64,000 nt of DNA from an uncultured Nitrososphaeraceae archaeon (GCA_963765895.1 CAVXZB010000019.1:1-64000), one strand, 5' to 3'. Positions 9,131 through 52,785 are shown, counted from the first letter of the stretch. Numbers and translations: made by a program. Notes: generated from the letters alone by a model not told the origin.

Positions 9131-9189
9131 CCACCTAACCCGCATCAAAGTTGTCTCTTTATTACCACCCGAGTTATTATAATAGGTAA
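9131..9189 (+). mobile_element. att-like site 1 (class A core plus right arm)
   Basis: CCACCTAACCCG..CAAAGTTGTCTCTTTATTACCACCC..TATAATAGGTAA, closely matching 20727-20786. Confidence 0.65.
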
Positions 9190-9414
9190 TTGAGTACACA
9201 ATCCGTAATTAGTCAGGGCCTAGAACTTACAAAGGAAGATCCATTATACGCGTTTATGTACGCATTGAAATCTTCTGAGGCAAGAAGACAGTACCCAAAA
9301 AGATTGAAAATGCTATTTGACTACCTTAAACTATCCGGTTCGATACAAGAACAGGCCAATGAATTTCTTAATAAGATAAAAGAGAGGGGTGTAATCAACT
9401 CTTTCCTCTTGTAA
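9190..9414 (+). pseudogene. Tyrosine integrase N-terminal stub
   Basis: DPLYAFMYALKSSEARRQYPKRLKMLFDYL matches the N-terminus of thaumarchaeal integrases; no catalytic domain follows. Confidence 0.75.
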
Positions 9415-9523
9415 TATTAAAAAATTAAAAATTTCTATTTGGATAATTTTTATCAATGGTTAGATTTGGCCGATTATTGCATAATAAAATATCATTGTTA
9501 TATACTTAGGCTAAAGGAAAAAA

Positions 9524-9925
9524 TTGCATATGTCAGAAAAAGAAAAAGAAGTTGGAGCTGAAGCAATCCTTGTATCAATAAACTACAAGGACAGGACTTA
9601 TAGAGAAAGGATTAAAGATATCCATGCGGATAAAGATAAGATAAAAAAAGCTACAAGTGCCCTAAAGGCTCTTGGTTTTACCGTTCCGGCAGCAGACGGT
9701 ATTATAAGCATATCAATATTTGGAAAAAGAGAACTATTTGAGAACATATTTCAGATCAGACTTAACATGATTATATCAAAAGATACGGATAGCAATAAGA
9801 ATACTTCGAGTAGTAAATCTTCATTTAACCATTATTATGTTTCTGACAGAAATGTAAAAATCCCTAAGGAACTTGAAGGTCTGGTGTATGATGTTGTGTT
9901 TAGTAGAGAACCTACATTTGTGTAG
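9524..9925 (+). CDS. Stand-alone subtilase prodomain-like protein
   Basis: AE..L..LKALGFTV..ISISIFGKRELFE..IPKELEGLVYDVVFSREPTFV aligns with the prodomain of the neighbouring S8 protease. Confidence 0.7.
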   Translation: MHMSEKEKEVGAEAILVSINYKDRTYRERIKDIHADKDKIKKATSALKALGFTVPAADGIISISIFGKRELFENIFQIRLNMIISKDTDSNKNTSSSKSSFNHYYVSDRNVKIPKELEGLVYDVVFSREPTFV

Positions 9926-9960
9926 ACTATAATAATAAAATTTAGTTGAGACCTTTTCTA

Positions 9961-11444
9961 TTAAGGTATGCTATGCCATGCTTTGTATGCATCCACTAAC
10001 CCATGTCCTGTGGCCGCGTCATATCCTGGCCCTGCTGACTCTCCAGTACCTGCTATCTCCAGTCACGACATCGCGTGCCGTTCCTTCAAGGATTAATTTG
10101 ATATCATTGGGATGCAGACTCGGTTTTTTCTCAAGTAGTAATGCTACTATTCCTGCGACCATTGGCGTCGCACTTGAAGTACCACTAGCACATAGCCAGC
10201 CATCGTTTCTTGGTGTTTCATCACCATCTGGAAAGTTTCCGCCTGAAAACTCACCATCTACAGTGCTATTTGGCATTGTAGGCATTGTTATATAGACGCC
10301 TTTTGGTGCTAGTCCTACTAATCCGCATATGTCTGGAACATGCCTTCCAGGATATATTGAGCTATCAAAGCTACTAGCATAGCTTGATGCTTGGAGGTTG
10401 AGGTTTTCGTCAAAATAAGCACCACCGACAGAAATTACTTCAGACATACTTCCAGGCCATGCTTTCATGCCATGGTTTCCAGCGGCAAAGAGGACTGTTA
10501 TGCCATTTGCAACTGCATTAGCTATTTCTATTTCTAAAGGTATCAATTCAGGCGGTAGTGTTGAAGAAGTATCTATATCGTATCCCCAACTGTTGGTAAT
10601 TATATTGGGCCTCCACCTAACTGCCAATTTAAAAGCAAGTGTCGGATTCGTACCTTGTTTTACAGATACAAACTTAACTCCTGGTGCTACTCCTAATGCA
10701 TTTGCAGATATTCCAGTGACCATGTCCGTATTCATCAGTATTAGGATCAATTCCTGGCTCTGGTACTGCAATTGTAGATATGTTGTAGCCGCGACTTGTA
10801 TAATATGGGTGAGCAGAATAAAATCCTGTATCTACCAACGCTAACTTGACACCTCTGCCCAATACACCTTCTGTATGAAGCTGATCTGCTTTCATAAGCA
10901 TAGGAACATCTGCAGCTGGGTGTAGACTAAAATATGTAGGATCAGGATGAGGTGGAAATGCAGATGTAAAAAATATTGGCTGTTCAGGAATAACAACACC
11001 TTCCACTAAATCTTTGATGTTATCTGGTGCATTGAGAATACTCTGATCTTCAGGTGCACCATAAAACGAAACTTTCTTTTTGCTTATTGCAGAATTAAAA
11101 AGTTGAACTGTTTTTAACTTTAACTGAGTCTGACAATGTTTCTCTACTAAATCCACTTTACCTCCTATAGAAATAGATGCGGCACCAACTGCCAAAACTT
11201 GGAAGCCATTATCTTTTAATCCTTTAATGGTCGCTCCCACATTATCCATAACAGGGAGATAGTCTCTTACATTTCTAGACAGTACCCACTCATCTCCTTC
11301 GAGTACCTTGAACTCCTTAGACATTGGACGAAGGGCGACTTCTGCAGAAACATAGTCTTCAGGCCTACCTGATAGTGTTGTAGTTGTTTTAGCCTTAGAT
11401 CCAGCACGATTTTTTTTTGCGCTTTCTTTTAGCCTTTTTCTCAT
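9961..11444 (-). pseudogene. S8 family serine protease (two frameshifts)
   Basis: Catalytic motifs LVDTG, DEYGHG, FAAGN, SGTSSATP; true C-terminus GYDAATGHGLVDAYKAWHSIP* ends at 9961. Confidence 0.85.
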
Positions 11445-11646
11445 GCAGAGAATTGTTCGTTGCTGTTTATTTTATCTGTCTAAATTACATCTTTTATTTA
11501 TAAAACTTGATTAATCCAATAATAACGATTTATTAGATAACTTAATATCATCTCAACTTACGAAAAAAATCCTCAATCTTTTAGGGTTTTGTGTGATAAG
11601 TTCTACAATGTATTTCCGAAAAATAGAAGGATCATTCCAGCAAAGC

Positions 11647-11692
11647 TCAAATCCCTCGGGCCCGAATTAATCTTGTCCGCCTATTGGGGCCC
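11647..11692 (+). mobile_element. att-like site 2 (tRNA-like core TCAAATCCCTCGGGCCCG plus class C right arm)
   Basis: T-loop/acceptor-like sequence directly upstream of an integrase stub. Confidence 0.65.
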
Positions 11693-11708
11693 ACGTCTAT
11701 ATTTTTGA

Positions 11709-11930
11709 TTGTCTGAGACCATCATTGAGCAAGACCGAATGTCCTCATTTGTTTACGCTCTAAAAGCACCAATACAAAGAGGCTGTACCCTAAACGATTT
11801 GCATCCTTCCTAAGTTTTTTAGGTTATGAGGGCACTTTAGAAGGTCAAGCTAAACTGTTCCCAACAAACGCTAGAGAAAACGCTCAATAGGCAGAGGCTG
11901 AACTGATGAAATTCATATTATTCCAGAGGA
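11709..11930 (+). pseudogene. Tyrosine integrase N-terminal stub
   Basis: MSETIIEQDRMSSFVYALKAP/TKRLYPKRFASFLSFLGYEGTLEGQAKLF..ELMKFILFQ with a frameshift and a stop. Confidence 0.7.
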
Positions 11931-12181
11931 AATCAAATTACTCTAAGTTGATACGTTATTATTATTCGCATTGAACATCGAGTGTCCAGAAGTAATGTCG
12001 TTGGAACGTTATTGATATTTTCATCGTCCATGCTATTATTGAGTTTTAGGTAATAGCATATCCTATCCCACATCATTTGTTTTTAGAGTAAAAAATGACA
12101 CGATATAACATCTTTAACAACCTGCTTCATATGATTTAGAGCCATATTACACCATGGTGTATCCGTGTCATTATTATACCC

Positions 12182-12559
12182 GTGGGTGGCAAAATTGAGT
12201 CAAATTTGGTTCCCATTCCACCGAACCCGGACCAACGACATAGAGTAAGCTTTGAAGTTACCGGAAAGCAGTATAGTGATCTAATAAAATGGGAGAGGTC
12301 AATTGAAGATCGTTTATTTCGATATCAGGTAGAGACAGGAAAGATGTGGCCTGGAAGCGATGATGTAGTATGTGAATCAATCTTAGAAACATTCAGAGTA
12401 ATTGCCAAAGAAGGTGGAGACAATATTAGACCATATTACGGTGCAATTGGAGGAGCCTATATCTACAAATTCTGTCCTACTTCATTGGGTTTAATAACTA
12501 AAGTAGAAAATTCAGTTACACATGAAGAAATTGATCTAACTCAGTATGGAACATGGTAG
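12182..12559 (+). CDS. Hypothetical protein (phage-like GAIGGAYxYxFxPTSLG motif); 5' end read through the att-like site
   Basis: 125 aa ORF with a globular C-terminal motif. Confidence 0.5.
   Translation: MGGKIESNLVPIPPNPDQRHRVSFEVTGKQYSDLIKWERSIEDRLFRYQVETGKMWPGSDDVVCESILETFRVIAKEGGDNIRPYYGAIGGAYIYKFCPTSLGLITKVENSVTHEEIDLTQYGTW
12184..12236 (+). mobile_element. att-like site 3 (class A left arm plus core)
   Basis: GGGTGGCAAAATTGAGTCAAATTTGG..CCACCGAACCCGGACCAAC resembles 20693-20746. Confidence 0.6.
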
Positions 12560-12754
12560 TAATAGTAATATTTATAGCAATACCGTCGAAGCCACAGGAA
12601 TAACAGTAGTCACCAACTAATAAGACATTTGAACTCGACAGATGAATGGAAAAAATACAAAACACTAACCATGATCAAGACTTAACTTAACTACAGTACC
12701 TTATACAAGTGCTACGATGTTCGATACAATATAAAAAAGGAGTATTATTATGTT

Positions 12755-13155
12755 ATGTTCAAGATAATTGAAAATCAGCTTGCCACGGAAGGGATTCATG
12801 AATTTAGTTATCATGAATTAAAAGATGTTGATTATGAGACTGGAGGAATTACTGATATAGTATGGCCTGTAGCTGATGTGCGAGATCTATATGATGATGA
12901 TTCTAACGCTGTAGAAGACTATGAAAAAAAATTGATTTAGCATGGGAATTAATACAGAAAAATGGTAGAGTCGTTATATGTTGTGTAGCTGGAATATCTC
13001 GCAGCAATGCCATTGCACTTGGTCTCCTAGTCAAGTATTTTGACATGGATTTTTATGATGCATGGGAATTGGTTAAACAACGAGTACCCAGAGCATATAT
13101 AAATCCAAGTCATATTTCAAAACTAAAGAAATTGTTTGATGTCACTCTACCATAG
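12755..13155 (+). pseudogene. Dual-specificity (CX5R) protein phosphatase, frameshift in an A8 run
   Basis: Adding one A gives ..EKKIDLAWELIQKNGRVVICCVAGISRSNAIALGLL..VKQRVPRAYINP. Confidence 0.8.
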
Positions 13156-13490
13156 AAAGGAAATATGACAGACTCTCCTACTTCTGCACCTTCTAATACA
13201 AGATCCTACAATTTTGTCGAAGACTTTTATTGTGATGATCTAAGCATACCAATGATAAAGATCTTGTAATATCCAAATTACTGAGGCAGGATATACAAAA
13301 GTACAGGAGCCTGTTTCCTCAAATATCAGCGAGCTATCCAATCCAAAAGATATCAAGCGCGCCCTTTTTATTAAGCGTGTATATTGTGAAAAATATAAAA
13401 CTAAAAGATGCCTAGAATTCCAAACTCATTGGCTTTTGATACACTTTAAATTGTTACTTAAGGATCCAAGAACAGTTAAATATACTATAA

Positions 13491-15128
13491 TTGTCTAGTT
13501 TTGGAATGTCTGAACGTCAGCCGAAAACGATCTTGAGAGTAACGGCGGCAATAATTACGATATTAATCTTATCTATAAACAATATCGGATCATTATCTAA
13601 TATCGTAGCTGCACAGAATAATGATGATAACAATAACCTAGTTATTACAGATGGTATCGCTAGCGGTGATGTTACAGATAATAGCGCTGTCGTGTGGTCA
13701 CGCGCAAAAGATCGAGCTTTGATGCATGTCCAGTATGATACCGACCAATCCTTTTCGCATGCAAAGTCAAAGACTTTATTGGTAGATAAATTAACAGACT
13801 TTGCTGGCCATATAAAACTTGATTCACTTTCCCCAGATACCATTTATTATTATCGTGTATGGTTCTCTTCTGCTTCGGACAGCAATAACAATACCACTAA
13901 ATCATTGTCGACAAGACCGGATTCTGTGATAGGAAGTTTTAGGACAGCTCCTGATCATTTGACTAGCAAACCAATCAGTTTCGTTGTTGGAGGAGACCTT
14001 GGTGGACAGAATTATTGTAGACGGGATGGTACAGGAGGAATACCAGGCTATCCGATATTTTCAATAATGCAATCATTGTCTCCAGACTTCTTTATATTCA
14101 ACGGAGATCAAATTTATGGAGATAATGCGTGCTCTATAAATGGTCCATCAAATGTTACTGGATGGATAAATATAGAAGGAAATTTTCCAAGCGTTATTGA
14201 CAACAAGGTGAATTGGAATAATCAAACTCAGCTTCAAGATGTTTACAACAAACATTGGGAATATAATAGAGCAGATCCTCATTTACAAGGTGTTTTGCGC
14301 AATATATCAATGTATTCTCAGGCAGATGATCATGAAGTAGTAAATGACTATGGTGGTAAATGGTCCTATTGGACTAATGCTACTAAAAATAGAACAGGAT
14401 TTCCTAACGTAGTAAAAGCGGGCATCAATTCATTTTTTAATTTCTCGCCAATAGATAGAAACAAAGCAGAGCCAAACCGTATCTACAGGTCTTTTCATTG
14501 GGGCAAAGACTTTGATTTGTTTTTGTTAGACATGCATTCTTATCGCAGCCGAAATAATCTACCTGATACCGCACAGAACAATAAAACACTGTTAGGGAGA
14601 GATCAACTTCATTGGTTAGAACAAAGTCTTCTTAACTCTACTGCCACCTGGAAGGTTATTTCTGCAGACGTACCGGCTACAATACCAAACTGCTTCAATA
14701 AACAATTAGGTTGCGATAATTGGGCTACTAATGGTACTAGTGCCACTTTCAAAGAAACATTTACAAGAGAACGTTCAGATTTTCTAAGATTCTTAGATGA
14801 TCACAACATAAAAAATTTAGTTGTAGTGGCAACAGATGTACACTTCCCAATAAATATACTAGTTGAAGACGATCCTAATCGTGATGGACATAAGCTAATT
14901 TACCACGAGTTAGTTAGTGGACCATTGAGTGCAATTCCGCTTAAAGCTAATCCACTTGATCCAACCATTAATGCTATATCTAAATATCAAGAAAATCAAT
15001 TATTTAACTTTGGATATATCAAAATACAACAAGAGAAATCTGATAAAAAAGTACATTTAATATCAGAAGTAAGAGATGGAAATGGTCTTCTACGCCCTGG
15101 ATCACATTGGGATATACCGCCACAATGA
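13491..15128 (+). CDS. phoD: Alkaline phosphatase D family, secreted
   Basis: GIASGD, GDQIYGD, DDHEV, LLGRDQLHWL, TDVH motifs; N-terminal hydrophobic signal. Confidence 0.9.
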   Translation: MSSFGMSERQPKTILRVTAAIITILILSINNIGSLSNIVAAQNNDDNNNLVITDGIASGDVTDNSAVVWSRAKDRALMHVQYDTDQSFSHAKSKTLLVDKLTDFAGHIKLDSLSPDTIYYYRVWFSSASDSNNNTTKSLSTRPDSVIGSFRTAPDHLTSKPISFVVGGDLGGQNYCRRDGTGGIPGYPIFSIMQSLSPDFFIFNGDQIYGDNACSINGPSNVTGWINIEGNFPSVIDNKVNWNNQTQLQDVYNKHWEYNRADPHLQGVLRNISMYSQADDHEVVNDYGGKWSYWTNATKNRTGFPNVVKAGINSFFNFSPIDRNKAEPNRIYRSFHWGKDFDLFLLDMHSYRSRNNLPDTAQNNKTLLGRDQLHWLEQSLLNSTATWKVISADVPATIPNCFNKQLGCDNWATNGTSATFKETFTRERSDFLRFLDDHNIKNLVVVATDVHFPINILVEDDPNRDGHKLIYHELVSGPLSAIPLKANPLDPTINAISKYQENQLFNFGYIKIQQEKSDKKVHLISEVRDGNGLLRPGSHWDIPPQ

Positions 15129-15182
15129 GGAAGAAAAGCAACAGCTTCATAGCTTGGATTTTAAATACACTTTAAAGCCTTG

Positions 15183-15243
15183 CCAAACCCCCTTGGGCCC
15201 ATACTGATATCAGTCCTTAAATTGGGTTCTACCTAAAATAGGT
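15183..15243 (+). mobile_element. att-like site 4 (class B core plus right arm)
   Basis: CCAAACCCCCTTGGGCCC-ATACT-GATATCAGTCCTTAAATTGGGTTCTA; homologous to 51608-51660. Confidence 0.7.
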
Positions 15244-15691
15244 ATGTCCAATGAGATGATATCAGTTATACAAAAACAACAAAAAGTGGCAGGAGCGGAG
15301 ACAGAAGCAGAAGGACGAGTTTTCAACCAACGGTTTCAACATAATTATTTTGCTGAGTTAGAAACAACTTCATACTCACTGTTTGTGCTTGCTATGAGAT
15401 CCCCCCCAGACAAAACAGAAATACCCTCAGAGATTTGGATATTTTCTTGACTTTGCTCAGGTTGCAACAGAGATAGAAAAAATAACCTCAGTTGAGACGC
15501 GTTGTAATATGTTAGCTGATTTAGCAAAAAGCGACCACAAATGGCTTGTTAGTTGTATATTCAATTATCTCCAGTTGCTCAAGGCCAGAGTGGAATCTAA
15601 GGAAATTAAGGCTTCTACTCTTAGAAACAACGTCAAACCCATAAAGTTGTTCTTCGAGCAAATATCTAAAGACTATGGACGCTTTATCTAG
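15244..15691 (+). pseudogene. Tyrosine integrase N-terminal stub
   Basis: SYSLFVLAMRSP.. and WLVSCIFNYLQLLKARVESKEIKASTLRNNVKPIKLFFEQ; frameshifted and truncated. Confidence 0.75.
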
Positions 15692-16321
15692 CAATCCTTG
15701 GATCCTATATTATAACATAATACATATTGCCGATAGTGCAAAGAGAGAAAAGATCAATACTCCTATCCCAACGAATTAAATGTCCTGAAATACTTGAGAA
15801 AATGAAAATTCAGGTAGTTTCAATAAGTTTTGAGTGAATTCCCCCATGTTTTGCTAGTATCAAAGGCTTACACAAAAACATTGTTACAATACAGTGTCTA
15901 TTAATCTCCCATTTGTATACCTAAATGTCATTAGTGATATCGTTAGTGGTTTCGTGCTCAAAGGTCTAGCCCTTTACTAGTAACGTTTCGGTAAAGGCGG
16001 TATAGAAGGGACAATTAATAAACAGACTCAGTTTTATTATGTGCGTGGCTTATGGGGCGACGTTATCGTCATATAAAGCGTAATAACCGGGATCGCTATA
16101 GGAATTGATGCTGCTAGAAAAGTACCCACTACTTTTAACTGTGACCTCAAGGACTCGGGGATTGGAACACCTTCAATATCAAATGTGCTTTATTACTCCC
16201 AAAGCCGAAAAAGTAATAGGTTTAAGGCTGACTGATAGCCCTTGGAGATTTAGCAGTGATCTTTGCTCCAATGAACGTGGGATGAAAATGCTTTTAATCT
16301 TATCTAATGTATATCTTTCTA

Positions 16322-16585
16322 ATGAAGGCATATATCGTATTGTTTACGGCAGCGTTTCTGATAGCAGCAACAGCAATATTTGTCAATACTATGACTACTT
16401 ATGCACGGAGCCCAGAGAATATGATAGGAGGAGGAGCCAATATGACAGCGGATGCAAGCAAGCTAGCTCCTAGTGGAAGTACAAAAGGCGTAGTGGCACA
16501 AGGCGAGAAAATTTTCACAGTTGTTTGCCCTAGAGATTTTCAAAGTATTAGGCAATGCGAAGTCTTTACGGCCCAGCCTAGGTAG
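16322..16585 (+). CDS. Small secreted protein
   Basis: MKAYIVLFTAAFLIA..TYA signal peptide; C-terminal Cys pair. Confidence 0.55.
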   Translation: MKAYIVLFTAAFLIAATAIFVNTMTTYARSPENMIGGGANMTADASKLAPSGSTKGVVAQGEKIFTVVCPRDFQSIRQCEVFTAQPR

Positions 16586-17169
16586 TAGCAGTCAAGGCAC
16601 TTAAACCGCAGTAGTTAATGGCTACATAAAACAATCATATTTTTTAATTTCTGGGGGTTGGGGTGAATAATATTTTTAGCACTAAAACTGAGTCTTATTG
16701 TTAATGGTAATTTTCGCATGGATATATTTATCCATAGAATCCGTCATCGTTATCGTTGACTTTTCAAAATATACCGACAATTTTCCTAGAGCATAAAGGA
16801 TATTTATACCAGATCCACCCGCAGAAACACTTCCTAGTCATGATTTCAGCAGCACTACGAATTTGGAAATAATTCCAAAAGAGAGTAATATTGGTTTATT
16901 CTGCTGCATGATACAGAGTTACATGAACCAATGAGCTTGAGCTTGCATATAAGATTCGAAAGACGTATCTCCGAAAAACCGCTAGCGAGCTAAGAGTCTG
17001 TAAACTTCTAAATTTTGGAAGCCGTCTATTAATCCATTTATGAACTGCTAAAACGATCTCTCTTGGTAGTAGTAAAGTGAACTCGTTGGACATGAAACAA
17101 AGGTACGAGTAACTATATAAAGAAAAATCACACAAAAGCCACTTGGCTGGTGATAAACCCGCTTACGAA

Positions 17170-17280
17170 GGGGGCGGGTCAATCATTATGAATAGTTCTA
17201 TTGCCGGAGTGAAAGGATTTCCGGGCACACTACTGTCTACAGCGCCACCAAAGCGCCCATACGTTCATTTGCCCGAGCTC
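17170..17280 (+). pseudogene. Short-chain dehydrogenase internal fragment
   Basis: GSIIMNSSIAGVKGFPG..VYSATKA..RSFAR (YxxxK motif). Confidence 0.6.
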
Positions 17281-17528
17281 GATCTGATGGCACGTCTACG
17301 CTGGCATACTTGATTCGAAAAGCTAAGTTAAAAAGAGGAATACTTACACTATTGTATTGCATCCCACCGAACCCTATAACGTAACCTGGATCTATTTTTT
17401 TAAGGTATTCATATTAATTTAGGCTATAGGAATTTAGAAACTAGAATCGGGTTTTTGGTATGTTAAATTACTCCTCGTAGTAAAAATCTAGTCGTATCTA
17501 ACTATAAATGAAATAACAGCTCAGACAT

Positions 17529-18239
17529 TCATTTTATCGTTAAATGATATGTTACGTCTGTTACGTAGCTATTAGAATTGAGATCTGATGGTGGGGAGCT
17601 CCCGTTAAAGTGAACCATATGGGTCCCTCGAGACATAGGCTTTAGCATAACATACCATCCGTCAGCAGCTGAGATGGCTGGGCCTCCTTCAGCTACAGGA
17701 AAGATCGACTCCTTAGCCGGAGGATAAACAACGCTTATTGATGGAGATTGAACTCTATATGTTTTAATATTCGGGATATTGACTCCATCAACACTTGCAC
17801 TTACAGAAGCACCATTGTTGGAATTGATGGCACACTTGAGTAATTCAGGTCCAGTTTTAAGATTTCTATTTTCTTTAGTACTGCACTCGCCAGTAAAAAT
17901 ATTAAGAAATAATGCCTTCCCAGAAGGTATAGTACAGGTACAATCTAGTTTGCCACCACTTGTACCGAGTAAAAACCACACAGGTCCTTGTTGTCCTACA
18001 GCACAACGTGCTCCAGTGTTATCCGTCAGCGGACTTTTACTGGAAGGTGTTGAAATAAGCCATTGCCATTGCTTGGCTCCCCAATCACTGTATGTCAGAC
18101 CATAGGGTTTAGAGTCCAAGGGAAAAACAGCAGGGATTTGGCTTGTGGCATAAGCAGATAATATACAACTACTTGCTATTACGATTACAGTCATTCCAGT
18201 AAGAACAGCGATAGCAATATAAAATGGGGACTCTAGCAA
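17529..18239 (-). CDS. Secreted hypothetical protein (PYGLTY..W...W.WL / GPVWFL / ADGWYVMLKP family)
   Basis: Signal peptide plus conserved motifs of a family commonly expanded in AOA. Confidence 0.75.
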   Translation of the reverse strand: MLESPFYIAIAVLTGMTVIVIASSCILSAYATSQIPAVFPLDSKPYGLTYSDWGAKQWQWLISTPSSKSPLTDNTGARCAVGQQGPVWFLLGTSGGKLDCTCTIPSGKALFLNIFTGECSTKENRNLKTGPELLKCAINSNNGASVSASVDGVNIPNIKTYRVQSPSISVVYPPAKESIFPVAEGGPAISAADGWYVMLKPMSRGTHMVHFNGSSPPSDLNSNSYVTDVTYHLTIK

Positions 18240-18376
18240 TCAGGAAAATCCAAAAGGAGCAGGGATGATAATTTAAACAATTCGGTCTACTTTGGATACT
18301 GACTCCATAGCCCCACAAATATATATTAGTGATTTCTACAAATGAGGTTAAGTGTGAGGTTTGAGATCTAAAAAAT

Positions 18377-19738
18377 ATGATCTTCGAAGGCTTTCATAGA
18401 CATACGAGCAAGCTCGCCTTCATTCTGATGTGTATAATAATTTTATTGTTGGTCGCAGATATCTCTATCGCCAGGATCTATATACTCATATACGGTAACA
18501 TTTTTTCAGGAAGCAATCTCGGGATTTCTATTGATTGGAACGTACTTGGATTTACTCTAATAACGGCAATATGTCTAACGGGGCAGTTTATTATGTTAAA
18601 GGCTGTCACAATAAGAACTAAAGAGGTGAGTACGAAAGGACTCCTCCGCCTCTATAAAGTACAAAAATTAGTTTCTGGCATACAATACACAATAGTTGCA
18701 CTTTTCATCTCAATGATTCTGTAGATGTTATTTACTTCCAGCTATAATACAGTGTTGCTTGCAGCAACAATCGGAGTTAGTTATACCTTAGGAGCTATTA
18801 TGATGGGTTATCTTGCTTCAAGATTCTATCTTTGGTTCAAGGTAAATAAGAACTCAGTGGTACTAGCATACACACTTGCCTCCGCAATGCTCTTCATAAA
18901 TATTACATTTACATTAGTTTACGTTCTGAATTTGCTCACAGATCAACCCCTAATCATGCGACCGCATGCAGGTCACATGTCGGCAGCAATTTCCGAGGAC
19001 TCGATACTTTATTTGGGATACGTCATATCGGCACTCCTTTCATTTATACTGACTTGGATTGCTACATCTTTGTTAATGCGTCATCATTCTGACAAATTAG
19101 GGAGGATAAAGTACTGGCTTATCGTCTGACTCCCCTTAGGATATTTTTTGAGCCAATTCGCCCCATCATCCCTTAACCTATTTATCGAATTCCGTTCATC
19201 TGACCCCGTTACATTCGCAATTGTCTATAATCTCATTTTCGGCTTGAGTAAGACAATAGGCGGTATACTTTTTGGTATTGCGTTTTGGACGATAGCTAGA
19301 GGTCTTCGCCAAATTCAAGTCCGTGAATATATGGTAATTTCTGCATATGGCTTTGTACTGTTGTTTGTTTCAAACCAAGCCATTTTTCTCGTAAATTACG
19401 ATTATCCACCATTTGGACTTGCGACTGTATCCTTTGTCGGATTTTCATGCTTTTTAGTACTCATTGGCATCTATTCTGCAGCAATTTCAGTAGGGCAGGA
19501 CATTACACTCCGAAATTTGATCAGAAAATCTGCTCTAAAAGAGGCAGGTTTGTTACATAATATCGCATCCGCTCAGATGGAACAGCAGATAACTCAAACT
19601 GTCTTATCTATTGCAAAAAGAAACGAAGTTATTATGAGCGAAGAAACCGGCCTTGCCGCGTCTATTGAAGACGAAGATATTGTGAGATACACGAACGAGG
19701 TCCTAAAGGAAGTCATGAAGGAGAAGGATATAAAATAA
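18377..19738 (+). pseudogene. Multi-pass membrane protein split by two in-frame stops
   Basis: Three ORFs in the same frame; YPPFGLATVSF motif; many TM segments; divergent from the secreted gene. Confidence 0.75.
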
Positions 19739-20692
19739 CTGTCCGGAGGTTAAAAATGATGGACAGGTGGATTGCACAACTAAATAGTTCCCGAAAGGTG
19801 GTCGCGTGATTCGAGTTTATGGATACGATCGTGCAAATGTACCCAATTTTAGTTCTTCTTACCAGTAGGTTAATCCATATTATGTCCTCCTATCATTGAG
19901 TGAAGAATCATTTGAATGTCAAGCAGCTAACTATACCCTAGCAAATGTTCTATCTGTCACGGGATCCATAGCATTCATAGTACTAATTCTATTCTGCTAC
20001 AACAAATGAAACTTAGATATGATAGGATTCATTATATGAAATCCAATATACCACTTATGGATACCCTGACGTTATGATGCGTTGGAACTAAACGATAGCG
20101 CGGTCTAGGTTTTGGGTAACGAAACCTTGAAAAAAATTGCTGTAGAGCTCACTCGGATGATAAGAAACAGCGTTACAATTGATTAGATGCGAAGAGAAAG
20201 TGTGCAGGCCGAAATCCGCTTGAAGGTTAAAAAATACTGGGAAAATATGGCTATCCCCAAGACAGAGAGAAAAGGGCAACAGAGACAGTCTTAGAATAGG
20301 CAGGAATAATCATGAGAGATTGGGCCAAGTAGATCAGCATTAGCTAAGGAGAGTCTTCATTTCTTGCTTGAATATAAATGCCATTTCCAGTTTTTTGGAG
20401 GAGAGAATGAAATGGAATCGCGAGCTGGTGTCTACAGCATTTTTACAGGACGATCAAATTGCACCTTATTATAGTCAAAGACTATTGAAAACAAGATATG
20501 AAGTGCAATTAATGAAATCCATGTTACTGCACCGTCCAAAAGTCATCAAGTTAGCAGAAATCTATCTAATAGTCAATAGTCATAATCCATACTTGCTTTG
20601 ACGTCTTTTGCAGATTTAAACGACTTTCATATATGAAAAGGGTGTTACTATTCTGGAAGGGATTTTGTTTCATATGACATATATTTAACCTT

Positions 20693-20786
20693 GGGTGACA
20701 AAAATGAGTCAAATTTGTCTCGGATTCCACCGGGCCCGTACCAAACTTGTCCCTTTATTACCACCCATTCTGTTATAATAGGTAAT
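20693..20786 (+). mobile_element. att-like site 5, complete class A (left arm, core, right arm)
   Basis: GGGTGACAAAAATGAGTCAAATTTG / CCACCGGGCCCG / CCAAACTTGTCCCTTTATTACCACCC; the arms are imperfect inverted repeats. Confidence 0.7.
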
Positions 20787-20944
20787 GTCTTATCCTAGAT
20801 TCTAAGGTATATCAAACTAGTAACGAAAGCACAGATATAGGTTTAGAGGCCCAATATATTAATTATAATTTTGAATATTTTATAAGTGCGTAGATTCGTT
20901 CGTTGGTAACGTGAAGCAGCTGAATTGCAGAAACTCTAAATAAA

Positions 20945-21298
20945 TTATGGGATAATGTCGCGTATACGCGACAGTAGGGTAACGCATTTGTTATTTATAT
21001 CTTTCAGTTGGTTATCGCTCAAATTCGAGTGCGTCAGATCGAGATTCCGTTTTGCCATTTGAAAGTAGAAGGAATCCATAGTTTCGTAATCATCATAATT
21101 AGTAATGATTCTACGTCTTATCTTGGGACTAAAATTATCCCAACTCAATATAAACGTCTTTCTTGAGAGGGGTTCTTGTATAAGCATATTATAGATACTT
21201 TTGTATTCTTGACCTATAGTAGTAATTAATTCGTCGCGTAGTTTGCCTTCAGTCAGGTTTATTGTTGTAGTATCTAACGCTCTTCTATGTTCCTCCAT
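20945..21298 (-). CDS. Hypothetical protein
   Basis: 117 aa ORF downstream of the KAP NTPase. Confidence 0.45.
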   Translation of the reverse strand: MEEHRRALDTTTINLTEGKLRDELITTIGQEYKSIYNMLIQEPLSRKTFILSWDNFSPKIRRRIITNYDDYETMDSFYFQMAKRNLDLTHSNLSDNQLKDINNKCVTLLSRIRDIIP

Positions 21299-21386
21299 TA
21301 TTTTATACCTTGCAATATTTCATCCGCGCCTGCGTCAAGAAATTCCCCCAAATCACTATTCTTCATAAAGAGCTTCGGATAGGATG

Positions 21387-22578
21387 TCAATATTTCTTTA
21401 AATGATGAATACTTTTCGGATTGTTTATTGAACTTCTCAAGCGCTTTTCCATCAGGTACCTAACCTCTTCTTTTTTCAACTCTTTATAGTGCCTTAGAAT
21501 CTCTACCCTCTTATCGTCGTCTTTTACTAATTCTAAAAAAGTATTCCACTCCCGTCTAAACTTCAAAGCCTGAACAACTATTGATTCCTTAATGGGTTTG
21601 TCAAAGACAGATTTTGCCAGAATTATAGTATTAATGAATGTTTTTACCTGTCTTGGGTTCAACTCAACTCCTTTTTTAATTAGCCCTTTATTATTTTCAA
21701 ACTCTTCAACAAGATCAGAGCCTTGGAGATCTTCTGATATTATATGGCTTATGAATCTGGTTATATCTTGCTCTATCCAAGTTGGTATTTGGAACGGAAG
21801 TTGAACAATCTTCTGCAAATAGTCCAACCCTTTGATATCAGATTCCTCACCATATTTCTTTCTAACTAAAGAATTTATGGTATCCGAGTCCATACCTATA
21901 ACATATACAATTCCTTCGATATCAAAGAAACTCTTCATTGATTCTAGAACTTCTAAAGCTCTATCAGGGGTGCATCTATCTAAATCATCTATAAACACAA
22001 CAATTCTATAGCTTTTATCATCTTTTCTTGCCTCATCTAATCCCTTGCCAAGGAATTCTGTCACATGATAATAAATTGCTTTTTTTATCGTCAGCAACTG
22101 AACCATCTCCTTTCAGTTGATTAGTAAGCTTTTCGAAGTCCACTTCTGCGCTTGCACCTTTGATACCGTATGTAATTTTAGTTGATGCGATAAATGCGGC
22201 TGCAGTGCGCTTTACGCCATTTTTGAAACCATTCCATCTTTTTTCTTTCGCTTTTTTTGATGCGTCTAATGTTAGTTTAACAGTTCTGAGAAATGGGATT
22301 ACCGCAAGGTTTTCTTCCCTTTCATATCTCCAAGCATCAAACCAGACTGTTAAGACTATCTCATTTTCATCAAGAATTTTTTTTGTCATTCGCATCAATG
22401 ATGTCTTTCCAGTTCCCCATCCGCCAAAAATTCCAATAGCGAATCTTGGCGTAGAATTTATTATTATATTTGCTAGTTTCTGGCTATAATCGTTAAAGTC
22501 GAGCGCGTCTTCTGCGGTTGGCTCGTCAGTGATTATCTTTATTACATCAGACTTGGAACCTTTGTCGTTGTGCGACAA
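21387..22578 (-). pseudogene. KAP family P-loop NTPase (frameshift in the homopolymer at ~22085)
   Basis: Walker A GGWGTGKT, WFDAWRYE, Walker B VVFIDDLDRC, YLQKIVQLPF, NPRQVK. Confidence 0.85.
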
Positions 22579-22940
22579 TGTTATCGAATACTTAAATGGA
22601 CTCGAGTCTAATTATGTTATCGTGAACTAGATGACTACTAACAGTATAATTTTCGTAGAATTTTTTTACGTTTAAAAATCTCTAGTAAACAATTGTAATC
22701 TGAAAGGTTAAATAGCATTCGTAGCATGATTTTTGTATTTTGCTAGTAAATCAAACAATTATTTGATCATAAAGTAGATTCTCAGTAGCAATTTTTAACC
22801 CCTCCTATTGTGGTTCATGTAAAGCTCGGTAAAGCGTATCGATGATAGTTTGACTAAGTCATGACTTGCTGGCTAAAGAGTAACGCAGGATATAACGTCA
22901 AGACATTTCATCTAATGTTCAGCCAAAAAATTAATTCTGA

Positions 22941-25653: not shown

Positions 25654-25715
25654 GCATCTCTACTTACCTACCTTGAATTGAAAACGTTTAATGCTTAGAT
25701 TGCTTTTAATAAATC

Positions 25716-39938: not shown

Positions 39939-40414
39939 AAATCTTTATTCATTATCTATTGTATTTAAATTGGACAGTTACCAATAGGTAAGCAAATTTT
40001 TTCACTTACTTATGGCTAGCGGATCCTATTGATAGGTAAAACTATCTGATTGGTGATGAATTTAATATCTGTTGACTCCCAATTAATGACGCCATTGGAT
40101 AGTAGCAGCTAGTCGATGTGAATCAACATACTAATTCCGTTAATATGCAATAAGTTTAAAACATAGGACAACATTTGGACTTTTTAACGCATCCGGCATA
40201 ATTATCTCGAAAAGCGTTATAATCTGATAGGCGGCAACCCGATGATAAATATTATCAAAAATGCTGCGTCCTAGGTATAGACTGACGTCCCAGGACGGTG
40301 AAACATTAGTATGATATTTTAGTCTATTTGTCGTCATACACATGCCAATTTCTTGCTACATTGTTAAGAACTAAATCCTGTATTGTACCTTGAATGTAAG
40401 GGATATACTACAAG

Positions 40415-41362
40415 GGCTGTGTAGAAACCATCTCATACAGTCAAAGCTTTGTAAGAGTATAATACCAATAGTCTATTGAAAGAATCAATGTACGTCAGAC
40501 TTGCAGGTACTATGTTCCGTGTTTTGAAGCATGCAAGGATTCCTCTATTTTCTAACAGGAAAAGTAATCACATATTTACAATATGGCAGCACATAGTTCT
40601 AGTTGCTATACGACAGTATGAAGGTAAGAGTTATAGAATGTTTGTCGAGTGGTTAATTGAAGCCTATTACCTAAGGTCATTTCTACGGTTGTCACGTATT
40701 CCTCATTTTACAACATTGCAAAAGTTTACAGATAGAATCAATAATTCATTGCTTGAAAAGATAATTTCGTCATTCATTGTAATTAGTGGTACCAAGCATA
40801 TCTTTGCAGGAATAGATTCAACAGGATTTAAGATAACTCATGCATCACAATATTATACTGATCGAACAGAATTGAGAAGAAAATATGCGAAATTATCTAT
40901 TGGAGTAGATGTATTACAACAAATCATATGTACAATTAAGATAAGACGAGCTCCAACAAGGCATGATAATGTAGATTTCAGGCCAATTATAACAAGGACA
41001 TCAAATATTCTTCCATTATCTGTAGTTACAGCTGATAAGGGTTACGATAGTGAAGATAATCACCTTCTCGTAAGAGAGGACTTACATGCATTCAGTATTA
41101 TTCCTGCTCGATATGAACATGTACCGATGTGGAGAACACATGGTAAGTACAGAAAGCAGATGAAGCGTGGTTACTCCAAATTGCTGTACAATCAACGAAA
41201 CAAAGATGAAACCATAATATCAGTTATAAAACGACTATTTGGAGAGAATCTTATGTCTAGATTGACTAGAATGCAGAACAGAGAGTTATCATTTAGATGT
41301 ATCACCTACAATATGCATAGACTGACTAATCTTGTAATATTGATGATGTTTTCTACATAGCC
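40415..41362 (+). mobile_element. IS5-family insertion sequence
   Basis: TIR GGCTGTGTAGAAA / TTTCTACATAGCC; TSD ACTACAAG at 40407-40414 and 41363-41370. Confidence 0.9.
40476..41360 (+). CDS. IS5-family DDE transposase
   Basis: Close paralog of 36758..37663 with intact DDE motifs. Confidence 0.9.
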   Translation: MKESMYVRLAGTMFRVLKHARIPLFSNRKSNHIFTIWQHIVLVAIRQYEGKSYRMFVEWLIEAYYLRSFLRLSRIPHFTTLQKFTDRINNSLLEKIISSFIVISGTKHIFAGIDSTGFKITHASQYYTDRTELRRKYAKLSIGVDVLQQIICTIKIRRAPTRHDNVDFRPIITRTSNILPLSVVTADKGYDSEDNHLLVREDLHAFSIIPARYEHVPMWRTHGKYRKQMKRGYSKLLYNQRNKDETIISVIKRLFGENLMSRLTRMQNRELSFRCITYNMHRLTNLVILMMFST

Positions 41363-44667: not shown

Positions 44668-46091
44668 GTCCCATTTCTAGTCCATAACAGAAGAGAACAG
44701 ACACTCACTCTACTTCTGGTGATGCGCATTGCCACCACCCGAATTGGTATTTGTTGGAACTACCGAGCCGTGATGCGAATCTCCCTGGCCTCCGGTATCC
44801 AGGATGCTTGCAGAGTGGCGACTCATGGCATTGTCGCCTTAATTCAAATTTATTGCAAGTGCCAAATTATGACTGTAAAACATTCCAACTGCTGAACCAA
44901 TGATCATTACTATTGTCAATTCAATAACCAACGTTGCCGGGTTAGGGCGGCCCTTCATTACATCCATAAGTTTTTACTTAGTGACATCTAGGCTCACCTT
45001 GTCTTCAGTATAGATCTGCACAGCATTCTATTTAGGAATAGCAGAAACTAAGTGGAAATCTATCAATCTATTGTTGAACACCTCTACTCCTCAAGAATTC
45101 TTTAGCAATGTTCAGCACAGCTTGGTTCTTCGTCGGTGCGACATTTAGATATGTTGTATGATTTGCAACCGCACCATCTATCTATCTATAACTATATCAT
45201 TAGTTTTTCCATAAACCAAAAACTTGTTCTTTCTCTTCCCGTTCTTTTCTAATCTTAGCCGTACGGGTTGTTTCGACTATCATTTCTAATGTATTATAGA
45301 ACTCGATACGTTCTTTCCAGGATAGGGCCTTGAGGAATTCCTCTCATTCCTGCAATGGAGCGAAAAAGTCCGGTTCGTCATGATCATCCGTTATTCCTGG
45401 TGTCATATTTGGTTCTATCGTAATATGGACACCTTATCACTTAATACTGCTATTCGTTTGTGGTGCGACGGCATCGCTAGTGCTATTAAATGCTAAATTT
45501 ATCTTTATATCACTAAACATTTGCTGAACTTGCCTCAATTAGCGTTCCTTCTAAACTGTGAATGTTATCACGGCATAGTAAGACTGTACCCTTAAGGTCT
45601 TCTATAACGTCCTTATTTTCATGAGCTTCATTTCTTACCTGGCTAATAGTCTCTTGCTGACATTCATATTCTTTGATTATTCTATCAGGGTTTTATGTCT
45701 AGGCTCATGTAGCCTCTGAATCCCATGTCCTTCTATGAGCTCATTAGATTCCTAACTTATGTGAATAGACGCCTGTTCTACAGGAGGAATTTACTTGTAT
45801 AGATAATGGTTGCTATGACTCCTACGAAGTACGGGAGAATATCAATATTGCTACTTCATCCGAGGCTTCAATTGGAACGATAAATTATGACCATAATTTA
45901 ATTATCTCTCTTCAGTAACTTCTCCTTCTTCAACAATGAGGTTTGTTATCTCTGAACCATCGACATGTCTTATTATGATATTGTATAAGTGGTCCATGCC
46001 TTGATCCCTATTCTCGCACTCGAAAGTTCCAGATATCTTGAAACTATAACGCTTTCTTTCTGTCATTGAATTCCACGTCTCAAGTAACTAA

Positions 46092-46307
46092 TCATTTATC
46101 CTTTTTTATCTCATCCGTGGCGTGCTGAAAGATTTTAGCCATTGATGTATTACTACTACTACTGCCGTTACTAGTTGGTGTGTGTGTCGTAAATGTGTCA
46201 TTCCCAAGTGCTTTCACATTAGCACTAAGCGAGGCAAGTGAAGCAGATCCTGCCAGGACCATTGTAACTACAAGGATAGTCATCAGAATAATTTTCTTGG
46301 TTAACAT
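46092..46307 (-). CDS. Small secreted protein
   Basis: Signal peptide MLTKKIILMTILVV..VKA. Confidence 0.45.
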   Translation of the reverse strand: MLTKKIILMTILVVTMVLAGSASLASLSANVKALGNDTFTTHTPTSNGSSSSNTSMAKIFQHATDEIKKDK

Positions 46308-47867
46308 TGTTAGTTAGTTTACTGGACTCCTATTTGATAAAGACGTCATTTTTCTTGCTTACCTCTTATCACTAGTATGGCTGCGGATTACCACGGCCTG
46401 CTTAGCCACAGAATGTATGACAGCCTTTGTGCAGATGGGTAAATTGCTTGATAAGGTAGATCGTATATTATTAGTATAGAGAGGGGGACCGAACACGCAT
46501 GACTATGACTAAGTCTAAGCACACCTCCTTATTTTAGTGTTCCAAGTGTCAGAAGAATTATCTGTCCAGACACTATGTAGTTAGACATTTCAAGGAAAGT
46601 CATACTGATACTATGAATGAGGGTCTTAAATTAAGCGCCTATTACTCAAGGATTCCAATTTCTGCTGGAGAGCAACGTTACTAGCTAAATCTAACAAGTG
46701 GCTAGCGAATATAAAGAACAGCAGCTGTTTCGCTGTAAGCTATGTCACCAACTTAGAAAAGGGAGAGAATGGATCAGTCATCTAGACTCAACGCATAGGA
46801 TTCGTATAGATCTCTTACAAAAATGCCAAGAGACCGGTCAGATACTCATTCAAATTACATCGGGAGATTGAATTAAAAAATGATTAGCAAAAACAGCATC
46901 AATAACGACAGTAGCAATAGCAATTTAATAGAGTTTACATTGAGGGAACTAGGGATAATACAAAGCGCAGTATTTCTGAGATCATATTGAGGACGAGGTT
47001 TCACACCTGACACAGGATCTAGTGTCTACATTGGATCGGGCCAACGCGTTGCTGAAGGACCAGTGACGAGTATAATAATATCTCGATGATACGGTGTACG
47101 ATGCCATCTTTCATTTGACTATAAGATACAGGAGGCAAAATTAGACATAGACGGCAGAATTTGATACTAGTAGCAAATATTTAGGTACCAATAGCAAAGC
47201 CATCCCCAGAGCTAGTATAAAGGGCAATTATATCCATTGGGATAACGATATACTCCCACTAGTAAAGGAGCAGTATGATATTGCCACAAGGGAGAGAATA
47301 CCTCTAACACTCATAGGTCTTCTATACATATTTGAATTACAAGTCCTAAGAGTTATTCGTACCAGAGGATACACGAAAGCGTATAATGATAAACAGCACC
47401 GACAACAATAGCAATACCAGCGCTGACAAAGATAATAGGAAGCTAAATTCCTGGCCGCCTCGCCTATTCTAGTCTGGGGCTGGATACCATTACTCTTGTC
47501 AACAAGTAACAGCAACAACAACGGCAACGGCTCAATACCACATAATAATATAGAAGACATGGATAAGATGATCAATGCGATGGATCTAGTACTCAAGCAT
47601 TACAAAGACAATGAGGAAGAGCTAGCGATATCGGACCTAGCAAAGTACGTAACCGCTTTGCTCAGATTCAATACCTTCCTGTTTCCTGCAATAGACAAAC
47701 TGATCATGCTTCAGGAAAAGGGCAGCAATAGCGATAGAACTACAACGAGACACAGCAGAGATGATCAAACGATACAGTAGTTTCTATAGTTAGAACGACA
47801 TAATATAAAACAGGTAAGTAGATAACAATGACAATATCAAACCCAAAATTTAAGGTAACTAAACCCC

Positions 47868-48095
<228 letters not shown>

Positions 48096-50560: not shown

Positions 50561-50573
50561 TGGATGTTGATTA

Positions 50574-50699
<126 letters not shown>

Positions 50700-50731: not shown

Positions 50732-51142
50732 CTATGGCCAACTTGCAAAGTTATATTGCTGCCACATTTCCTTGATTTTACCATTTGAAATACGAAAGAG
50801 ATCGAAGCCTGTTGCAACATATGGTTTACCTGTAGGTGGATTCCCAAACAATGGTCTTGTATTCGTTCCACTATTTGTCCATCTAATCAGCACCTTGTCT
50901 CCTTTGGCAAAAATATCATCATGTACAAGTTTTCTATCTGAAACAGCCGCTATTAGCGCGGATGCATATTTCTTTGTTCCTTCAGGACCTTTGCGTAATT
51001 CTTCAGGAAGGACAGGATTGTGTAAAACAAAATCAGGAGACAAAATCTCATCTGCTATTTCTAGCTTGCCATTTTGAAAAATGTCATTGTGATAACGCAG
51101 CGCTAGAGTTTGATTTTTATCCTCCTCTTGTTCTGTAGTCAT
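50732..51142 (-). CDS. SnoaL-like / ester cyclase protein
   Basis: ADEILSPDFV.H, GDKV..RW...GT, PPTGK, FRISNGKIKE. Confidence 0.85.
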   Translation of the reverse strand: MTTEQEEDKNQTLALRYHNDIFQNGKLEIADEILSPDFVLHNPVLPEELRKGPEGTKKYASALIAAVSDRKLVHDDIFAKGDKVLIRWTNSGTNTRPLFGNPPTGKPYVATGFDLFRISNGKIKEMWQQYNFASWP

Positions 51143-51582
51143 AAAATTCTACAATACAGAGTGGTATATAAGGTTCTTTAAAATTGGTAGAAAACATATG
51201 CGCTTAAAGAAAAATAATCTCTTAATAGTAATATTTAGTTCGGTTAGTTCACATCAGTATGAAGAATAAGTCAAGTTTCGATCCTATCGGGAAAATGTCA
51301 GAAAAAGTGTCTCATAACTAATGTTATGGAATATATCATACAGTAGTATGCATAACCCAGTTCTGATATGGAGCTTTTTGCAAATCTTATGGAACCAAGA
51401 GTTATCTGCGTACTTCGTTTATCATCCTCTCTAGCACTGTGACGGCCATCCATCCCAGCATACGAGGTCGAGTAAGTGAGAAAGCATTGCGACCCCATTC
51501 AACGAGATCGTTCTGAACGCAGGCAGTAGACTAGCCCTAATCGTAGTTGGAGACGCCATCGTTCAATGGATAGTTAGATAAT

Positions 51583-51660
51583 GGGCCCTTAATTGGGTCA
51601 AATTTGATTCACACACCCCTGGGCCAATACTGATATCACCCTTAAATTGGGTTGTACATA
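51583..51660 (+). mobile_element. att-like site 8 (class C left arm, degenerate core, class B right arm)
   Basis: GGGCCCTTAATTGGGTCAAATTTG..ACCCCTGGGCC-AATACTGATATCACCCTTAAATTGGGTTGTA. Confidence 0.65.
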
Positions 51661-51682
51661 AAATAAGTGTATACCAAAACAA

Positions 51683-52125
51683 TGGTGTCAGCAATACAAA
51701 AACAACAAAAAACAGGAGCAGGATTATGACCAGAAGGAGGAGCCTTAAATAGGCCGTTTCAGCATGATTATTACTCTCAAATAGAAACTAACACATAATT
51801 GTTATTTGTGCTTGTTGGATATTTTTCCCGAATTTGCTCGCGTCGCAACTGAAAAAACAACCCCAAGTGAGGTACGTTGTATATGTTAGCTCGATTGGCA
51901 AAATTTGACCACTACTGGCTTGTTAGTTGCACATTCATTTATCTTAAATTGCTCAAGGCCAGAGTGGAATCCAAGGAAATTTAAGGCTTCCATTCTTAAA
52001 CAATATCTAGCCAATAAAGCTGTTCTTGGAGCAAATAGATATTGATATTCCTTGGAAAAAGCTCATGCGTGGTATATGCCTAGGGAAAGAAATATGCAAA
52101 TGATCATGTTCCAAGACTTGAAGGT
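51683..52125 (+). pseudogene. Tyrosine integrase N-terminal stub (paralog of 15244..15691)
   Basis: Collinear DNA similarity; LLKARVESKEI..PIKLFLEQIDIDIPWKKL..YANDHVP. Confidence 0.75.
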
Positions 52126-52542
52126 ATTACGCTCAGACCAGGACTTAACCTGAAGTCTTATCTAGTGAGTACAAGTCTATAGTAATATTCAATATATATA
52201 TGACTTGATGGTCCTTTTTACAACCAATCATCTTTTAGCATGATGACGATGATTATAACACAACTAATCTCTTTTACTGATTGTTCTTCTCTATGTCAAA
52301 AATGTGGTATATATCCTTTATTGGTTCCCGAACTTCGATCTCTTGAAAGTCATATCCTTTATCAAGATAGATAAAGATTCTGTTTCTCTCTTCATTGATA
52401 TTATAAGACGATCTTTTAACTACGCTATTATCAAGTGTATTTATTGCTCGCTTTCATATCATCATACGTATTAGCCGCAGGTATAACAACAACAGATAAT
52501 AGAATACCTATAATATTAGATTGACTAATGAAATCTAGCTGT

Positions 52543-52635
52543 GGGCCCATGATAAATGTCAAATTTAGTTCACAAACCACTGGCCCCCACTACGATATCA
52601 GTGCTTTTATGTGGATTCCTAAGTATAATAGGCGA
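52543..52635 (+). mobile_element. att-like site 9 (class C left arm, degenerate core, B-like right arm)
   Basis: GGGCCCATGATAAATGTCAAATTT-AGTTCACAAACCACTGGCCCC-ACTACGATATCAGTGC..TATAATAGG. Confidence 0.55.
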
Positions 52636-52674
52636 TAGGAAAAGATTGGATCAAAACATGGATGAGGTATTCTT

Positions 52675-52785
52675 ACCAAAACTCATGGATATTGTATCTA
52701 GGTGCATTGAAGTTCCCTCTTAGAAGATACAAGTATCAAGGAAATTTGGCTAGGTTTCTAGACTTTTACGGAATAAGAGGATAAA
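52675..52785 (+). pseudogene. Tyrosine integrase N-terminal stub
   Basis: NSWILYLGALKFPLRRYKYQGNLARFLDFYG*. Confidence 0.6.

Follow-up and report, generated by a model that had tools for sequence, protein, structure and literature searches.

Att sites and matching host tRNAs

The window analysed here is a stretch of 64,000 nucleotides from an uncultured Nitrososphaeraceae archaeon (GCA_963765895.1 CAVXZB010000019.1:1-64000), corresponding to the first 64 kb of contig C19 (441 kb) in an assembly of 4.9 Mb, 88 contigs and 88% completeness. Between positions 9131 and 52785, it contains an array of short attachment (att) sites whose cores resemble the 3' ends of tRNA genes, and five of these sites are followed by the N-terminal remnant of an integrase. 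A first-pass annotation of this DNA had proposed at least nine co-oriented tRNA-like att sites and had read them as an integron-like array. All nine were confirmed in place, every one on the + strand, and we added two more: a Lys-like core at 17360 (14/16) and, just beyond the window, a left arm with a core at C19:68508.

Site 1 (9100-9191) is a Lys(CTT)-type junction with a degenerate left arm, a core at 9131-9144 carrying one substitution in CACCGAACCCG, and a class A right arm that contains a TATA-like box; the segment 9131-9393 is 95% identical to C16:6835-6575. Site 2 (11647-11712) has a core with a 1-nt deletion relative to the 3' end of tRNA-Arg(CCT) at C19:144872, and a class A right arm follows. 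At site 3 (12176-12234), a left arm of the GTCAAATTTG type (E 1.4e-11) precedes an intact Lys(CTT)-type core (12218-12232), an attR-like arrangement. The core of site 4 (15183-15249, core 15183-15200) equals the 3' end of a CAT-anticodon tRNA at 18/18 positions and is followed by a class B right arm. Site 5 (17360-17375) is the added Lys(CTT)-like core, and its right flank resembles sites of the relative G007. Site 6 (20684-20786) is a full junction of left arm, core (20725-20739, ATTCCACCGGGCCCG) and class A right arm, without a matching tRNA. Sites 7 (24042-24083) and 8 (25716-25762) are siblings with a second left-arm class, joined to a truncated CAT-tRNA core at site 7 and to an intact one (16/16) at site 8, which forms a perfect direct repeat with site 4. 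A site-free stretch of 26 kb (25763-51573) extends to site 9 (51574-51674), which has a left arm, a CAT-tRNA core made degenerate by 2 substitutions, and a class B right arm. In site 10 (52539-52635), a left arm and a class B right arm enclose a core that resembles, with one extra C, the 3' end of the C78:61936 tRNA; the junction at 52556-52750, both flanks included, is a paralogue of C78:76176-76369 (83%).

Sites 6, 9 and 10 and, in degenerate form, site 1 are junctions in which left arm, core and right arm occur in succession. Such junctions are what two stacked elements leave between them; therefore, they support the tandem integration suggested in the first-pass annotation.

Arm profiles were built from genome-wide flank copies, with 18 seeds for the left arm containing GTCAAATTTG, 11 for the class A right arm and 4 for the class B right arm. 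At E<1e-3, they matched the genome 28, 13 and only 4 times, respectively. The merged matches gave 37 sites in the 4.9-Mb genome, eight of which lie within C19:9-69 kb, all eight on the + strand. Seven of the nine claimed sites were recovered in this way (9142, 11665, 12176, 15198, 20684, 51574 and 52539). The remaining two, at 24069 and 25743, belong to the other left-arm class and are tied to each other by the core itself and by a common 42-nt left arm plus core, which is 90% identical between them as against 71-77% for the surrounding duplicated DNA. The exact 18-mer motif of 11647 matched once and that of 15183/25745 twice, against 0.01 expected in each case, well beyond chance. In the genome itself, a 17-mer of the left arm accompanies cores of at least five tRNA targets; it was found in 22 of 41 sampled family genomes, one of them the unpublished G048, and no control matched.

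No tRNA gene was detected within the window (ARAGORN; Rfam to E 10). Rfam gave 34 tRNA matches genome-wide, and the window cores equal the 3' ends of four of them, all located elsewhere. The cores at 9131, 12218 and 17360 match tRNA-Lys(CTT), that at 12218 being identical (11/11) across the shared segment. The tRNA-Lys(CTT) gene runs off the start of contig C23 and continues at the start of C38, and its anticodon was confirmed by ARAGORN on an identical 3' end in G007. The CAT-anticodon tRNA at C64:125530-125603 is matched by 15183 (18/18), 25748 (16/16), the truncated 24069 and the degenerate 51610. Core 11647 matches the tRNA at C19:144872, whose anticodon was taken by eye as Arg(CCT), and core 52568 corresponds to the tRNA at C78:61936. 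For the core at 20727, no counterpart was found in the same genome or in five relatives; an ARAGORN call of tRNA-Lys(ttt) on contig C24 looked like a false call. The proposal that the cores copy tRNA 3' ends was borne out for these four host tRNAs, but not for 20727, and six of the nine claimed cores are no longer intact copies, having 1-2 changes (substitution or indel) or a truncation in the tRNA-shared segment. The three intact cores are those at 12218, 15183 and 25743.

An accretion array is expected to share one core, whereas this window holds four core types and one orphan type. Within the window, the array also does not start at an intact target tRNA. The contig begins 9 kb before the array and stops on the left inside a multi-copy open reading frame (ORF), so that any anchor tRNA would be unseen; the contig start overlapped no contig end of the assembly. 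About ten ectopic Lys-type cores beyond background were counted in the genome. Folding of the nine claimed sites as hairpins was no better than that of shuffled sequences at any site (9/9; z -1.04 to +1.46), and base composition gives the array no mark (GC 0.34-0.40 vs 0.33-0.39 for the contigs).

The smallest decayed unit that we saw lies outside the window, at C19:144420-144950. There, a 450-bp mini-remnant comes after tRNA-Arg(CCT); it comprises a right arm, about 20 integrase codons and a left arm with a degenerate core.

Integrase remnants and cargo

An N-terminal integrase profile, made from the first 145 residues of eight copies outside the window, was searched against the six-frame translation of the window. 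It matched only the five places claimed earlier, all on the + strand, three of them strongly and two weakly. The stub at 9190-9411 is an open frame of 74 amino acids (aa; E 3e-12), and its homology to the C16 copy ends at 9393. The stub at 11709-11932 is interrupted by stops (profile match 11729-11887, E 1e-7), and that at 15244-15688 runs in two frames to about residue 154 of the C14 reference frame (match 15398-15688, E 7e-19). The weak matches are decayed remnants at 51871-52100 (E 5e-4 for 52011-52100, and 0.35), which are paralogous to 15507-15607 with 84% identity, and a remnant at 52632-52781 (E 0.014) with 83% identity to the C78 stub. All five stubs begin within about 45-80 bp after a core, and the cores end 43-45 nt upstream of the start codons at 9190, 11709 and 15244. 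Wherever a unit of the window has a right arm, a relic of its own integrase is present too.

A profile of the catalytic half, made from 12 copies, found nothing in the window in any frame (best E 1.8), and PF00589 had no match there; the description of the five stubs as N-terminal only was upheld. Their endpoints vary by site between about residues 97 and 178 of the reference frame, which looks like the result of independent deletions rather than of one fixed cut. A C-terminal fragment at 22959-23120 on the - strand comes from another, unrelated family of integrases, of the C18 type, with 70% identity over 54 aa.

Elsewhere in the genome, the stub family occurs at full length beside tRNAs on contigs C14 (434-aa ORF), C78 (435 aa) and C64, and at full length also on C41. 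Long but frameshifted copies are present on C16, C38, C84 and at C19:308 kb, and the family also survives as short N-only and C-only pieces. The R...HxxR...H...Y pattern was recognised by eye in the C14 integrase, and its Phage_integrase match was below threshold (23.2 bits vs a cut-off of 27.1). Public metagenomes contain full-length integrases of 385-443 aa, some of them labelled integrase in their source, with N-termini 72-82% identical to the 9190 stub. The first-pass annotation had suggested looking for intact integrases with matching N-termini; intact or near-intact members of the stub family lie directly after tRNA genes on C14, C78 and C64, but no close one exists for the class B units: class B right arms, of which the genome holds four, always accompany stubs, and the nearest intact integrase in the assembly is only 41% identical to the three window units of this class.

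A live copy begins at the tRNA with the right arm and its TATA-like box, and the integrase starts about 45 nt past the core; cargo, left arm and a core copy come next. The element at C78:61936-76213 shows this order with its 435-aa integrase. A Lys-type left arm and core lie inside it at 76057, shortly ahead of the element's end at 76156; therefore, foreign junctions travel as passengers.

The units between the sites span 0.6-26 kb and are multi-gene, with genes on both strands, two insertion sequence (IS) copies and several truncated genes. The segment 9524-11444 contains a 133-aa ORF on the + strand and a Peptidase_S8 subtilase on the - strand, the latter as two overlapping ORFs. An intact PhoD-like phosphatase lies at 13491-15128 (+), and a KAP-family NTPase at 21390-22578 (-) is divided into two ORFs with the break at an A7 run. 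The site-free 26 kb (25763-51573) holds MsrA, Ku, a truncated luciferase-like gene, truncated hydrolase and dCache genes present as fragments, and SnoaL, together with IS transposases at 36761-37663 (-) and 40476-41357 (+). ORFs of at least 100 aa cover 0.40 of 9131-52785 vs 0.60-0.81 in most of the 44-kb blocks further along the contig. After the last att site of the window, a metallo-beta-lactamase-fold gene (54043-54957) is broken by an in-frame TAA, and a 162-aa fragment of an HflX-like GTPase lies at 61646-62131; therefore, gene breakage extends beyond that site.

Two kinds of repeats were also observed. A repeat of about 175 bp starting with TGATATCTATAGATAGTAGCA has more than 40 copies in the genome and occurs in the window at 26260-26434, 31079-31259 and 40087-40150, where it is not tied to att sites. 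A conserved segment of about 45 nt often stands before it (30995-31037 and 40004-40046 in the window), and the repeat could be an element like a miniature inverted-repeat transposable element (MITE) or a shared regulatory module. In addition, (GATT)x44 at 47917-48093 and (GATT)x33 at 50567-50699, in the same orientation, flank a GC-richer segment of 2.5 kb (GC 0.45).

Host genome, relatives and public reads

Archaeal amoA is present in the genome; therefore, the host is an ammonia-oxidising archaeon. The gene, at C24:168102-168652, splits over three frames with two shifts within about 80 nt, reflecting either assembly indel errors or a pseudogene copy. Genomes of family relatives are mostly 1-3.6 Mb, with two near 5 Mb, as compared with 4.9 Mb here. 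Both IS copies of the window carry a DDE_Tnp_1 transposase; that at 40415-41362 has about 45 genome copies at ≥99% identity and that at 36755-37708 about seven. An IS burst is the probable reason why the genome is large and its assembly fragmented.

Homology blocks in relatives begin or end at five cores, namely 9131, 12232, 15183-15200, 20725 and 25745-25762, so that a check proposed in the first-pass annotation, for strain breakpoints at the cores, came out positive. The 3' flank of PhoD runs to the core and breaks inside 15183-15200 in 3/3 same-genus relatives, with three different sequences beyond. These breakpoints, together with the three sequences after the PhoD flank, indicate repeated integration and replacement at the cores in this lineage. 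In the complete genome of the relative G007, tRNA-Lys(CTT) is followed by four arm-defined, co-oriented Lys-type sites within 38 kb, the classic result of one site being used again and again. Contig C38 of the genome studied here shows the same pattern: it starts with the 3' end of tRNA-Lys and has Lys-type sites at 2159 and 11064.

The flanks of the array, 1-9130 and 53-64 kb, are patchy multi-copy DNA with no synteny in 25 relatives and no visible insertion boundary. The left flank looks mobile: a multi-copy 367-aa ORF with no Pfam match lies at the contig start, and blocks of 1-9130 are 71-91% identical to cargo (C19:299669-301694) of the element at the tRNA at C19:308537.

Three further candidates were rejected. 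In G004:C325, the PhoD block stands beside a block that in the window is located after core 25762, but no core was present at the outer end, so that it was not accepted as a clean empty site or circular permutation. The block 25777-26260 proved to be a multi-copy module not tied to cores rather than a core-linked unit. The block 45866-46378 resembles right element ends on C7, C52 and C38, and no site follows it.

Logan contigs of four public runs (X1-X4) were placed on 9000-28000; they are short pieces at a depth of about 1-5, and no more than 0.37 of the sampled words occur in the runs. Contigs of these runs, which may be the source sample, cross the cores at 12218, 20727, 24069 and 25743 with 0-2 differences. 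Among these low-depth short contigs, no joint between like cores was seen, and one weak joint led from 12238 to 15190, with a side of 25 letters, which is under the length at which the tool advises caution. One contig of run X2 represents a PhoD-less variant that joins 13394 to 15160 with 15 other letters between, its ends not being at an att core.

Origin of the array and known systems

Building on the observed site anatomy, tRNA matches, stubs and breakpoints in relatives, we favour an origin of the array in which tRNA-targeting integrative elements accreted in tandem and by nesting and then decayed through deletions, with rearrangement explaining the mixed cores and the missing anchor tRNA. 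We give this account a probability of about 0.7. All elements would come from one broad family of tRNA-targeting tyrosine-recombinase elements. The attP of a live element would combine a left arm, a right arm that holds the integrase promoter and, between them, 11-18 nt copied from the 3' end of a tRNA. By integrating into the tRNA, or into the att copy of a predecessor, elements would become stacked head to tail, with junctions of left arm, core, right arm and integrase. Deletions would later strip away the bodies of the integrases along with much cargo; N-terminal stubs would survive because they adjoin the arms, and the arms define the recognised sites. Some elements may have carried fossil junctions of another type as passengers, as the C78 element does, and homologous or IS-mediated rearrangement could have joined array pieces from different tRNA loci with polarity kept.

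The mixing of the four core types would thus be due to rearrangement and nesting. Exchange between the conserved arm and integrase 5' regions at different tRNAs keeps polarity, which would give co-orientation with no need for site-specific capture. The passenger junction of C78, the roughly 45 IS copies and the roughly ten ectopic Lys-type cores make a mixed, co-oriented array less strange.

Several observations weigh against accretion and decay. No rearrangement or nesting scar that would prove the origin of the mixed cores was found, the window has no tRNA anchoring the array, and three cores are still perfect. The higher conservation of arm and core in the site 7/8 pair is a hint that the sites were, or still are, under constraint. 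Each of the five remnants is N-terminal, and the 44 kb contain no C-terminal piece of the stub family, a pattern that we would explain by ascertainment. The split S8 and KAP genes are weak evidence of decay, because the amoA reading in three frames points to possible assembly indel errors. Therefore, the decay argument rests on the truncations, the missing catalytic halves, the mutated cores and one in-frame stop, and not on the split genes.

The same sites could instead form a working capture platform, in which att-bounded, non-autonomous cassettes resembling cis-mobilizable elements (CIMEs) are moved in trans by integrases from other parts of the genome and unlike cores may recombine through the shared GGGCCC; this would be the first-pass reading in its strong form. 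Intact family integrases on C14, C78, C64 and C41, the perfect direct repeat of sites 4 and 8 around 10.6 kb, the breakpoints of relatives at cores and the conservation of arm and core at sites 7 and 8 above their flanks would all suit such a platform, as would the 20727 core, which reads as a Lys-type left part plus a GGGCCCG right part. However, six of nine cores are mutated, class B right arms occur just four times and always with stubs, the cargo is partly truncated, each unit once had its own integrase, and the complete relative has single-type arrays at its tRNA; we consider a working platform unlikely. Still less likely is its broader form, in which a modular att family, with conserved arms around a swappable core that mimics a tRNA end, is widespread in Nitrososphaeraceae-like archaea, decayed units remain substrates in trans, GGGCCC-sharing cores recombine and the mixed array is a functioning gene-exchange locus. 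The first-pass suggestion that the array could still be rearranged by an integrase supplied in trans is, given the mutated cores and the class B units with no close intact integrase, improbable for most sites. Only 15183/25743, perfectly repeated on either side of 10.6 kb, might conceivably still work as a pair, through the CAT-tRNA-specific integrase on C64.

It is also improbable that the whole of 9-69 kb is one composite island that was assembled elsewhere, arrived as a unit and decayed in place. Copying of blocks with whole junctions has occurred, as seen in the C78 paralogue of the 52556-52750 junction with both its flanks and in the C16 copy of 9131-9393, and composite excision is known for tandems of a CIME with an integrative and conjugative element (ICE), according to the sections of PMC5704250 used here. 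However, no matching outer att pair was found, and the flanks are as patchy and multi-copy as described above, with no boundary to mark an arrival. An assembly artefact joining unrelated contigs at repeats might be suspected in a repeat-rich, metagenome-style assembly of 88 contigs in which amoA reads in three frames. The X1-X4 contigs that cross four cores and the recurrence of the same junction types on other contigs and in relatives make this explanation very improbable.

In the accretion account, the region is a rich example of a known process and not a new gene-capture mechanism. It is a detailed record of tRNA-targeting elements piling up, losing their integrases and being scrambled in an IS-swollen soil ammonia oxidiser. 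The att family is a useful by-product, a ready series for studying target switching by tyrosine integrases, and its arms are markers for decayed islands that integrase-based searches miss.

Among known systems, She and colleagues reportedly described in 2001 SSV-type 'suicidal' integrases and gene capture in archaeal chromosomes. As in the window, SSV-type elements show integrase fragments beside tRNA-derived att sites and elements trapped in the chromosome (Badel et al. 2020, PMC7253208, in the part used). However, their att site lies inside the integrase ORF, so that integration leaves the N part of the gene at one element end and the C part at the other, whereas the window core stands about 45 bp upstream of the start codon. 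Gene partition of this kind was rejected for the window, whose cores end 43-45 nt before the stub starts and which holds no C-terminal part of the stub family.

Integrons, including archaeal ones, share with the window co-oriented sites that separate gene-bearing units (Ghaly et al. 2022, PMC9668308, as far as its consulted sections go). The integron-like reading did not hold in other respects. The window has no IntI or any integrase catalytic domain, and its sites do not fold as attC-like hairpins (9/9 no better than shuffles). Integron cassettes are mostly one promoterless ORF in one orientation, whereas the units here are multi-gene, on both strands and partly truncated. The right arms of the window carry a TATA-like box before the integrase start, and each unit had its own integrase rather than depending on a resident one.

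Closer to the window are the integrative elements of Thaumarchaeota, for which short att sites (median 17 bp), tRNA 3' targets, arrays by site re-use and nesting have been reported (Krupovic et al. 2019, PMC6563490). Both sets comprise tyrosine-recombinase elements in tRNA 3' ends with short att sites, arrays and nesting. The survey, in the sections available to us, catalogued elements with integrases, whereas the window units are decayed, and a run of ten decayed mixed-type sites is not described in those sections. The part of PMC8371274 used here treats how an integrase is lost once integration has taken place and how tandem elements recombine homologously. For archaea, both papers note the route of accretion and decay in general terms.

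Bacterial CIME tandems (the ICESt1/ICESt3 model, and tandems of integrative and mobilizable elements with CIMEs at tRNA genes) follow a three-step decay-and-accretion model in the excerpts of PMC5704250 on which we drew. The window array differs from them in its archaeal host, its four mixed tRNA specificities in one orientation and its visible end without a target gene; most of its cores are mutated, and no conjugation genes were seen. The likeness lies in the process: as described in the same excerpts, an incoming element integrates into the resident's att copy, residents decay to integrase-less, att-bounded units that may be mobilised in cis or in trans, and each junction joins one element's end to the beginning of its neighbour.

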